Source: a virus (Duplodnaviria; Heunggongvirae; Uroviricota; Caudoviricetes). Taken from it: a stretch of DNA of 15,374 bases. The DNA lies in the IMG/VR virus record IMGVR_UViG_2778261572_000010. One strand, 5' to 3'. A program made the position numbers and the translations under genes. This document shows, one piece after another, positions 4,449 to 5,869 of the stretch. The notes below the pieces were generated by a model. It was not told the origin of the DNA. It saw nothing but the letters and a program-made list of their open reading frames with translations, and did not search any database. Position 1 is the first letter of the stretch. Every line of letters begins with the position of its first letter.

Positions 4449-4475
4449 CGGGTTCAACTCCCGCCAGCTCCACCA
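4449..4475 (+). other. 27-nt copy of the tmRNA (ssrA) 3' end (CGGGTTCAACTCCCGCCAGCTCCACCA): integration-site (att) repeat, not a functional tmRNA gene
   Basis: Exact match to the last 27 nt of E. coli ssrA including the CCA end, as recalled. Sequence upstream of 4449 does not continue into the tmRNA body. Lies between an integrase 3' end and a P4-type integrase start, as expected for an att repeat. Confidence 0.8.
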
Positions 4476-4510
4476 CTTTTTAGTTGTTTGAAGTACAATG
4501 AAGTCTACTA

Positions 4511-4543
4511 AGCCCGCACAGCACAAGCTCTGCGGGCTTTTTT
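4511..4543 (+). terminator. Rho-independent terminator-like hairpin (8-bp stem AGCCCGCA/TGCGGGCT, 12-nt loop, T-run)
   Basis: Perfect inverted repeat 4511-4518/4531-4538 followed by TTTTT at 4539-4543, 36 nt after the ssrA fragment. Confidence 0.7.
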
Positions 4544-4600
4544 ACGTCTATTGTCGTCCAGTGCGAATTGCTGAGAACTATAAGTTATGGCACCCTGAAT

Positions 4601-4637
4601 GGGACCCTCTAAGATGGGTCCAAAAACCGAGGGTCCC
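4601..4637 (+). promoter_or_regulatory. 9-bp inverted repeat GGGACCCTC(N19)GAGGGTCCC overlapping the integrase ribosome-binding site; candidate operator or recombinase-binding site
   Basis: Arms at 4601-4609 and 4629-4637, with a third GGGTCC copy at 4616-4621. The right arm contains the GAGGG site 6 nt upstream of the integrase ATG at 4640. Confidence 0.3.
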
Positions 4638-4639
4638 AA

Positions 4640-5869
4640 ATGGCAAAAATCGCTAAGAAACTCACTGACACTGAAATCAAAAGCACCAAGCCAGCCGATA
4701 AAGAAATCAACTTGTTCGACGGGGATGGTTTGATTCTACGAATCGCTCCTTTGGCGAAAGGTGGCAAGAAAAATTGGTATTTCAGGTATGCAGTACCAGT
4801 AAGCAAGAAAAGAACAAAAATGAGCCTTGGGACCTATCCTCACCTTACCCTTGCAAAAGCCAGAGCCTTACGAGATGAAAATCTCTCCTTACTGGCAAAT
4901 GGTGTTGATCCCCAAGTCCATAACAATAATAAGGCGAAGGCATTAAAGAGTGCTATTGAACACACTCTTCAAGCCGTAGCAAGGAAATGGTTGGACGAGA
5001 AGGTAAAGACCTCAGGTATCTCACAAGACCATGCAGAAGACATCTGGCGAAGCCTGGAGAGAAATATCTTTCCCACATTGGGTGATACTCCCATTAAAGA
5101 GATTCGGCCTAAAATGCTTAAACAGCATTTAGACCCCATAGAAAAACGAGGTGTCCTTGAAACACTTCGCCGCATCATATCCCGCCTGAATGAAATTTTC
5201 CGCTATGCAGCAACAGAAGAACTCATAGAATTCAATCCGGCTGACAATCTTGCCCAGAGATTTAGTAAGCCGAAGAAACAGAACATGCCAGCCCTGCCCC
5301 CAACCGAACTCCCCCGCTTCCTTACAGTGTTAAACAACGCATCAGTCCGTATGGAGACACGATTGCTGATTGAATGGCAATTGCTAACTTGGGTTCGTCC
5401 TGGTGAGGCTGTTCGCACAAGATGGTCAGATATTGATATTGAAACTGGCATGTGGAACATCCCAGCGGAGTTTATGAAAATGAAGAAGCCTCACAAAGTT
5501 CCACTGAGCAAAGAAGCTTTGCGAGTTTTGGATTTAATGAAAGCCATCAGTGGGCATAGAGAGTGGGTTTTCCCCAGTATCAAAGCTCCACTCAATCACA
5601 TGCATGAACAAACAGCTAATGCGGCCATAATCCGTATGGGTTTCGGAGGTGAGCTTGTAGCTCACGGTATGCGATCAATCGCCAGAACGGCTGCGGAGGA
5701 GTCTGGCAAATTTAGGACTGATGTCTTAGAAGCCGCCCTTGCCCACTCGAAGAAAGATGAAATAATTGCAGCCTACAATCGTGCAGAGTATCTCACAGAA
5801 CGGGTGATTCTCATGCAGTGGTGGAGTGACTTTGTTTCGTCTCAAAAATACAAAATTATTGCCGCATAA
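4640..5869 (+). CDS. P4/CP4-57-type tyrosine integrase (IntA-like), 409 aa
   Basis: Family resemblance to E. coli IntA from recall: arm-binding N-terminus (LTDTEIKSTKPADKEINLFDGDGLILRI, WYFRY), core DIWRSLERNIFP, catalytic C-terminus with HGMRSIA, LAHS, AYNRAEYLTERVILMQWWSD. Sits directly downstream of the ssrA att repeat, the ssrA-intA arrangement. Confidence 0.9.
   Translation: MAKIAKKLTDTEIKSTKPADKEINLFDGDGLILRIAPLAKGGKKNWYFRYAVPVSKKRTKMSLGTYPHLTLAKARALRDENLSLLANGVDPQVHNNNKAKALKSAIEHTLQAVARKWLDEKVKTSGISQDHAEDIWRSLERNIFPTLGDTPIKEIRPKMLKQHLDPIEKRGVLETLRRIISRLNEIFRYAATEELIEFNPADNLAQRFSKPKKQNMPALPPTELPRFLTVLNNASVRMETRLLIEWQLLTWVRPGEAVRTRWSDIDIETGMWNIPAEFMKMKKPHKVPLSKEALRVLDLMKAISGHREWVFPSIKAPLNHMHEQTANAAIIRMGFGGELVAHGMRSIARTAAEESGKFRTDVLEAALAHSKKDEIIAAYNRAEYLTERVILMQWWSDFVSSQKYKIIAA

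Follow-up and report, generated by a model that had tools for sequence, protein, structure and literature searches.

A 27-nt orphan end of ssrA very probably marks the seam of a lambdoid prophage and a CP4-57/P4-type island

The tmRNA gene ssrA is a classic integration hotspot of Escherichia coli, and tandem arrays of integrative elements at such targets have been catalogued by the thousand. The stretch of DNA analysed here (the window; 15,374 nt, one strand) carries the last 27 nt of ssrA between two integrase genes, which raises the question of what this gene end represents. A preliminary description had proposed that successive integrations at ssrA left it there. Our analysis points to the 27 nt being, very probably, a duplicated 3' end of the tmRNA gene at the seam of two elements that share one target, ssrA. 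The features of the window are as follows.

1-55, minus strand: terminal 55 nt of IS2 (the end upstream of the transposase genes), 100% identity, meeting the prophage at 55/56
56-2979, plus strand: early-left region of a lambdoid prophage with SPFH/Band_7, DUF5406, DUF4222 and small ORFs (Pfam, colinear match)
2980-3189, plus strand: excisionase gene xis, 69 aa (PHROG 2917, E 4.5e-41)
3144-4316, plus strand: prophage tyrosine integrase gene int, 390 aa, GTG start (Arm-DNA-bind_2, SAM-like and Phage_integrase domains)
4317-4448, plus strand: AT-rich phage-side arm of the attachment site, from the int stop to the core, identical in 10 of 10 loci with the same Int
4449-4475, plus strand: orphan ssrA 3' end, last 27 nt, comprising most of the T-arm, the 3' acceptor strand and CCA
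4476-4509, plus strand: island spacer replacing the native ssrA 3' flank, identical after intact ssrA in an island-only strain
4510-4543, plus strand: predicted Rho-independent-type terminator, hairpin and T-run (terminator scan, repeat finder)
4589-4637, plus strand: cluster of GGGWCCC-type repeats before the int ATG (4601-4607, 4616-4621 and 4631-4637, with GGCACCC at 4589-4595)
4640-5869, plus strand: CP4-57/P4-type tyrosine integrase gene, 409 aa (Arm-DNA-bind_3, PF13356; Phage_int_M, PF22022; Phage_integrase, PF00589)
5870-15154, no strand assigned: remainder of the island, with a serine recombinase, two ParB/RepB genes, an integrase 3' remnant, TIGR04141 and hxsA-D (100.0% identity)
6152-7708: serine recombinase gene
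7698-8594 and 8591-9487: ParB/RepB genes
15155-15374, plus strand: end of an IS3-family element, then its transposase start; island matches stop at 15154

Positions 4449-4475 read CGGGTTCAACTCCCGCCAGCTCCACCA and agree at 27 of 27 positions with the annotated ssrA ends of E. coli Z0117EC0005 and K-12, which is the identity to the 3' end of the cognate gene by which Islander recognizes a displaced fragment. Even when up to 3 mismatches are tolerated the window contains a single copy of the fragment, no match was obtained in any of 200 shuffles, and a chance match was rejected. ARAGORN found no tmRNA or tRNA gene in the window, and alignment revealed no similarity to the ssrA body 5' of 4449. With the Rfam tmRNA model (RF00023) the 3' end alone aligns, at 14.4 bits against a gathering score of 47; the window holds no complete tRNA-like domain with tag frame scoring above that threshold. 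The exact match and the ARAGORN result thus uphold the earlier claim that only the last 27 nt of the tmRNA gene are present.

To the left of the fragment, positions 56-4475 form one colinear match, of up to 97.9% identity, to the ssrA-adjacent prophages of E. coli E94, ETEC1732 and 'numer 3', and several ETEC strains are also among the matches on this side. The homology ends at 4475, with a few matches ending at 4472-4480. The xis gene, recognized through PHROG 2917 and with no Pfam or NCBIfam match, shares 46 nt with the start of int, and int is transcribed toward the attachment site. Its product, which is recorded identically in 253 blocks of an assembly collection, begins with an Arm-DNA-bind_2 domain, unlike the lambda Int type. 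The comparator prophages carry a cI/LexA-like repressor (LexA-like in E94), replication genes, a Q antiterminator, an HK97-type head and a J-type tail. An xis gene overlapping int, both directed toward attP within a lambda-like prophage, is the arrangement of a lambdoid xis-int module.

The free Escherichia phage LMessi carries the same fragment. In LMessi, the 27 nt come right after int and lead into CTTTTGATAGG... / CTTTTGATAGGACTGCAACC... (CTTTTGA...), and in the E94 lysogen intact ssrA is followed by CTTTTGACAGG... / CTTTTGACAGGACCACAACC... at the ssrA-proximal prophage junction. Since the LMessi sequence after the 27 nt matches this junction, the phage family carries the fragment in its attP. 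LMessi also has an arm homologous to 4317-4448, and its similarity to ssrA extends a few bases further left than in the window. The prophage in the window resembles the lambdoid ssrA phages (LMessi and STEC prophages) in the order xis-int-attP and in the 27 nt of ssrA within attP, but its int-att DNA is only ~80% identical to that of LMessi, and no sequenced free phage closer than this over the int-att region was found. ssrA has been listed among the integration sites of STEC prophages (PMC7067040, PMC8112680). Integration of such a phage would supply ssrA with a new 3' end and move the old 3' end to the junction next to the integrase gene. Judged by these alignments, what lies left of the crossover within the fragment is the integrase-proximal half of the phage attP, and the junction is BOP'-type by phage convention, though on the side far from ssrA.

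These findings bear on a simpler reading, in which the fragment is a truncated ssrA pseudogene, left when IS2 or illegitimate recombination deleted the body of the only tmRNA gene and phage DNA was fused to the remnant. The window lacks an intact ssrA and has IS elements at both ends, as this reading would have it. However, the boundary at 4449 is the same, with an identical arm, in every genome carrying this phage; a free phage of this integrase family likewise has the 27 nt in its attP; and E94 carries the junction together with an intact ssrA. We regard the pseudogene as extremely improbable.

To the right, island homology begins at 4449 (at 4453 in a few matches) and extends as far as 15154, with an identity of 100.0% in several of the genomes. 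Island-only genomes (Z0117EC0005, 100117 and others) have intact ssrA directly before the island, at 100.0% identity over 10.7 kb, in the order smpB - ssrA - int - serine recombinase - ParB - ParB - TIGR04141 - hxsA-D. Positions 4449-4475 are, by sequence comparison, the apparent core common to the prophage junction and the island junction. A three-way alignment presents the window as a chimera, E94-like phage up to the fragment and Z0117EC0005-like island from the fragment onward. The native ssrA flank reads ATCATGATTGG..., followed by ypjA; because it matches the sequence after K-12 psaA and is unlike the window, positions 4476-4639 are island DNA rather than chromosomal flank.

The island integrase gene is transcribed away from the attachment site. 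Its product combines a DUF4102 N-terminus with central and catalytic domains, scores 443 bits against a cut-off of 434 with the NCBIfam model NF007246, and is 48% identical to K-12 IntA over 401 aa, which together characterize a CP4-57/P4-type integrase. Searches for a right-hand ssrA fragment of the island with the 27-mer, a 19-mer, a 16-mer and the psaA variant, each allowing up to 3 mismatches, recovered nothing beyond the known copies from the window, L001, L002 and L004; a second fragment for the island was likewise not found in 50 kb of the comparators Z0117EC0005 and E94, and a direct-repeat search of the L004 island returned no repeat involving ssrA. As no right-junction fragment was seen, the island's own core is not delimitable here. 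In the annotation of Z0117EC0005 the adjacent ypjA homologue lacks both of its ends, which fits a deletion of the island's far junction.

Between the fragment and the island integrase gene lies a leader with a hairpin and a cluster of repeats. The hairpin at 4510-4543 has arms at 4510-4522 and 4527-4539 and six T at 4538-4543; the terminator scan caught its inner part and the repeat finder also found it, and its folding energy is -22.7 kcal/mol (z = -2.85). The same hairpin is found after ssrA in K-12 CP4-57 and before the P4-type int genes of L006, L009, L013 and E94. Across five island variants 98.3% of cells are paired, and on the aligned sequences this conservation is clear; no significant covariation was seen, a single pair having both partners changed and 192 of the 500 shuffles doing as well. 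The native flank has a different hairpin, ~140 nt after CCA, and the phage brings yet another. The hairpin and spacer are DNA of the island and not of the native ssrA flank. Each arriving element would probably equip the regenerated ssrA with a predicted terminator. The hairpin of the window would no longer serve ssrA and might at most block read-through from the prophage int.

Additionally, a 7-mer occurs three times (two direct copies, one inverted) before int in each P4-type island, and the 7-mer varies by island: it is AGGCCCA/TGGGCCT in K-12 CP4-57 (L005 1085-1145) and GGTATAC/GTATACC in the P4-like satellite of L009 (~11440-11510). The GGGWCCC-type repeats of the window may be arm-type or autoregulatory sites of the integrase that co-vary with it. 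As to the preliminary description, the terminator said to follow the fragment was recovered as a predicted hairpin and T-run by two scans; the lambdoid xis-int pair said to read toward the site does so, with the PHROG 2917 excisionase and the Phage_integrase protein both facing 4449-4475; and the P4-type integrase said to read away from it was borne out by its three Pfam domains, the NF007246 score and its position on the plus strand. The K-12 ssrA-intA region, named there as the comparison to make, has the same ssrA end, a related integrase (IntA) and a homologous hairpin.

The same leader shows similarity to a Salmonella small RNA, IsrM. The Rfam IsrM model (RF02763) aligns at E 1.8e-13, and positions 4466-4543 could be read as an IsrM-type small-RNA gene, instead of or besides an attachment-site remnant; in Salmonella, IsrM immediately precedes STM2763 and has the same orientation (PMC2330248). 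The alignment, however, covers only ~20 nt at the start of the model and 57 nt at its close (the terminator), so that 253 of 329 model positions are missing and the score is 56.6 bits against a gathering threshold of 376. No sigma-70-like promoter was found in 4000-5000, and similar partial matches appear at every P4-type int leader tested, with 27-42 bits at L006 11323-11411, L009 11332-11400 and L013 11323-11400. We therefore consider such a gene very unlikely, and a true IsrM gene in the window is ruled out by a score so far under the family threshold. A scan of viral contigs with the 5' end of the IsrM consensus gave 0 matches.

Salmonella IsrM and the window leader are alike in the terminator end and the ~20 nt of 5' end, and both stand downstream of ssrA and directly upstream of a co-directional gene (STM2763, which we take to be an integrase, in Salmonella); they differ in the part of the model that the leader lacks. 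IsrM may have descended from an ssrA-end/terminator leader of this kind. In Salmonella LT2, IsrM, a virulence sRNA of 329 nt, is located ~66 kb downstream of smpB.

How the two elements are arranged in complete genomes is demonstrated by E94, whose array reads smpB - ssrA - ~38 kb lambdoid prophage - xis - int - 27 nt - P4-type int island - ... - glaH. It contains one full ssrA end and one orphan copy, with the intact gene ~38 kb upstream in the same orientation and an element between them, and after the 27 nt its island continues with a P4-type int and then the same serine recombinase/ParB backbone as in the window. Islander delimits islands by such a pair of regenerated gene and displaced fragment (PMC4383910). 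The phage/island junction (at least 80% of window 4340-4640) was found in 9 of 5426 complete E. coli genomes, and an exact scan of the GTDB species representatives for the junction pattern gave 0 matches.

The identical prophage Int, arm and 27 nt stand before at least six different right-hand neighbours in the ten contexts examined, and the arm is unchanged across the ten same-Int loci regardless of the neighbour. To the right of the 27 nt lies either native flank or one of at least four other kinds of element:

L007, L008 and L010: native flank, then ypjA
L014: native flank, joined to csiD/glaH after a deletion
L006: CP4-57-like intA island
L009: P4-like satellite (psu, ogr/delta, alpA, primase)
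L012: P2-like prophage
L013 and L015: the island backbone of the window with other cargo

This pattern is consistent with a phage integrating into ssrA irrespective of its downstream neighbour. With homology breakpoints at 4449 and 4475, and with island-only, phage-only and full-array (E94) states all seen, the proposal of successive integrations at the ssrA hotspot is well supported. A complete array would run ssrA, lambdoid prophage, 27-nt fragment, island, with an intact ssrA presumably upstream in the source genome as well. The DNA right of the crossover is the left junction of the CP4-57/P4-type island, which would once have followed intact ssrA directly; the island brings its own spacer, predicted ssrA terminator, repeated motifs and int.

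The order of arrival is a separate matter, as the local sequence is the same whichever element came first. Within this explanation we hold it reasonably probable that the island integrated first and that the phage then entered the regenerated intact ssrA, which would have moved the old 3' end and the island ~40 kb downstream. Arrays that target tRNA and tmRNA genes normally grow at the regenerated intact gene. This order is favoured for that reason, because genomes with the island alone match the window at 100.0% identity, and because the identical phage Int precedes many different elements, which is simplest if the phage arrived later each time. These same three points count against the reverse order, in which the phage entered an unoccupied ssrA and the island later used the 27-nt fragment as a secondary attB, giving the same hybrid site. 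In favour of the reverse order, the fragment includes the entire 3' acceptor strand as well as most of the T-arm, and K-12 psaA implies that CP4-57-type elements need to share no more than about the last 17 nt. We judge it possible but rather doubtful.

A further point in its favour comes from L007. Here the orphan fragment (~11306-11331) lacks one T (GCCAGC-CCACCA), as does K-12 psaA, whereas its left part is of the phage/ssrA type; this hybrid suggests that P4-type recombination is possible at an orphan fragment. Such a hybrid would be the outcome expected from excision of a CP4-57-type island behind the phage, which would place that crossover left of 4469, and it hints that the orphan site stays recombinogenic. 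One may go further and suppose that the orphan fragment is an active site for both integrases and that the leader was a source of IsrM, perhaps being a short RNA itself, but we think this distinctly unlikely. If the orphan site were active, islands could exit or enter behind the prophage.

Taking the fragment as a duplicated ssrA end between two elements, the closest known system is CP4-57 of K-12, where a P4-type integrase, 48% identical, likewise reads away from the ssrA 3' end, a homologous island-borne hairpin and triple motif likewise precede int, and the displaced ssrA 3' fragment psaA likewise marks the boundary of the element. In K-12, however, the island directly follows the intact gene and the fragment is degenerate, 17 nt long and at the far end of the island, whereas in the window a perfect 27-nt fragment stands at the near end because of the phage in front. 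The cargo also differs, that of the window comprising a serine recombinase, two ParB, TIGR04141 and hxs genes. In the tandem arrays described with Islander, elements follow one another at one target gene, and every member contributes an integrase and an identically oriented tDNA fragment of its own (PMC4383910); the window shows no difference of substance from them. Both members have their own full-length integrase gene with catalytic domain (3144-4316 and 4640-5869); 4449-4475 serves as the fragment of the prophage, and none was seen for the island in the window.

The arrangement is therefore already known, being the standard signature of integrative elements at tRNA and tmRNA genes, and tandem integration at a shared attB is the traditional view (PMC8112680). 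What the fragment provides is a base-precise limit for two mobile elements and the assignment of the hairpin to the island rather than the chromosome, which is of use for annotation and for prophage and island calling and adds no new biology. Mildly novel threads are the IsrM similarity of the leader, the possible activity of the orphan site suggested by L007, and a duplicated integrase 3' end within the island.

That duplication covers the final ~270 nt of the P4-type int, including the stop codon, and continues for ~25 nt past it, 5602-5893 corresponding to 9560-9851 at 76-82% identity, and the two copies bracket the serine recombinase and the two ParB/RepB genes. Either the three-gene module entered the 3' end of int with a replacement end, or the remnant belongs to the mostly deleted integrase gene of a second island. 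In 'numer 3' the same int gene occurs without the module (L017 20302-21531), and its 3' end is a third variant. Beyond the module, 9984-15010 on the minus strand encode a TIGR04141 'sporadically distributed' protein and then the His-Xaa-Ser genes hxsA, hxsC, hxsB and hxsD. Elsewhere the cargo on this int/serine recombinase/ParB backbone is different, a type I restriction-modification system in E94 and RelA_SpoT with NA-iREase2 in L013 and L015, and the backbone behaves like a platform for exchangeable cargo.

Both ends of the window lie in IS elements. Positions 1-55 match L001 37457-37511, beside the annotated start of an IS2 transposase CDS, and 56-120 continue in the prophage DNA of E94 (L001 17057-17121); by the E94 annotation the IS2 end occupies an intergenic spot of the early-left region. 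The preliminary description had the left element truncated by this IS2 end. The IS2 identity stood (100% over 55 nt) and an interruption of the prophage is evident, but truncation is more than the window alone shows. Neither the IS2/prophage junction nor the full window was found by megablast in the 5426 complete E. coli genomes, and the IS2 junction gave 0 matches in an exact scan of the GTDB species representatives. At the other end, 15155-15374 have their counterpart in strain 100117 under an annotated IS3-family transposase. The window extends 55 nt into IS2 and 220 nt into an IS3-family element, and its odd length suggests an entire draft-assembly contig broken in repeats.

In related ssrA prophages and in the P4-like satellite, C4 antisense RNA or isrK-type RNA genes scoring above the Rfam gathering threshold sit in the immunity/ash regions (L006 3130-3318, L009 2864-3052, L009 17662-17947 and L013 2673-2861), and none was found in the prophage portion within the window. 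The related ssrA prophage of the pigeon isolate 'numer 3' carries genes for heat-labile enterotoxin IIA-type A and B chains (L017 428-1573), which adjoin its lysis genes.
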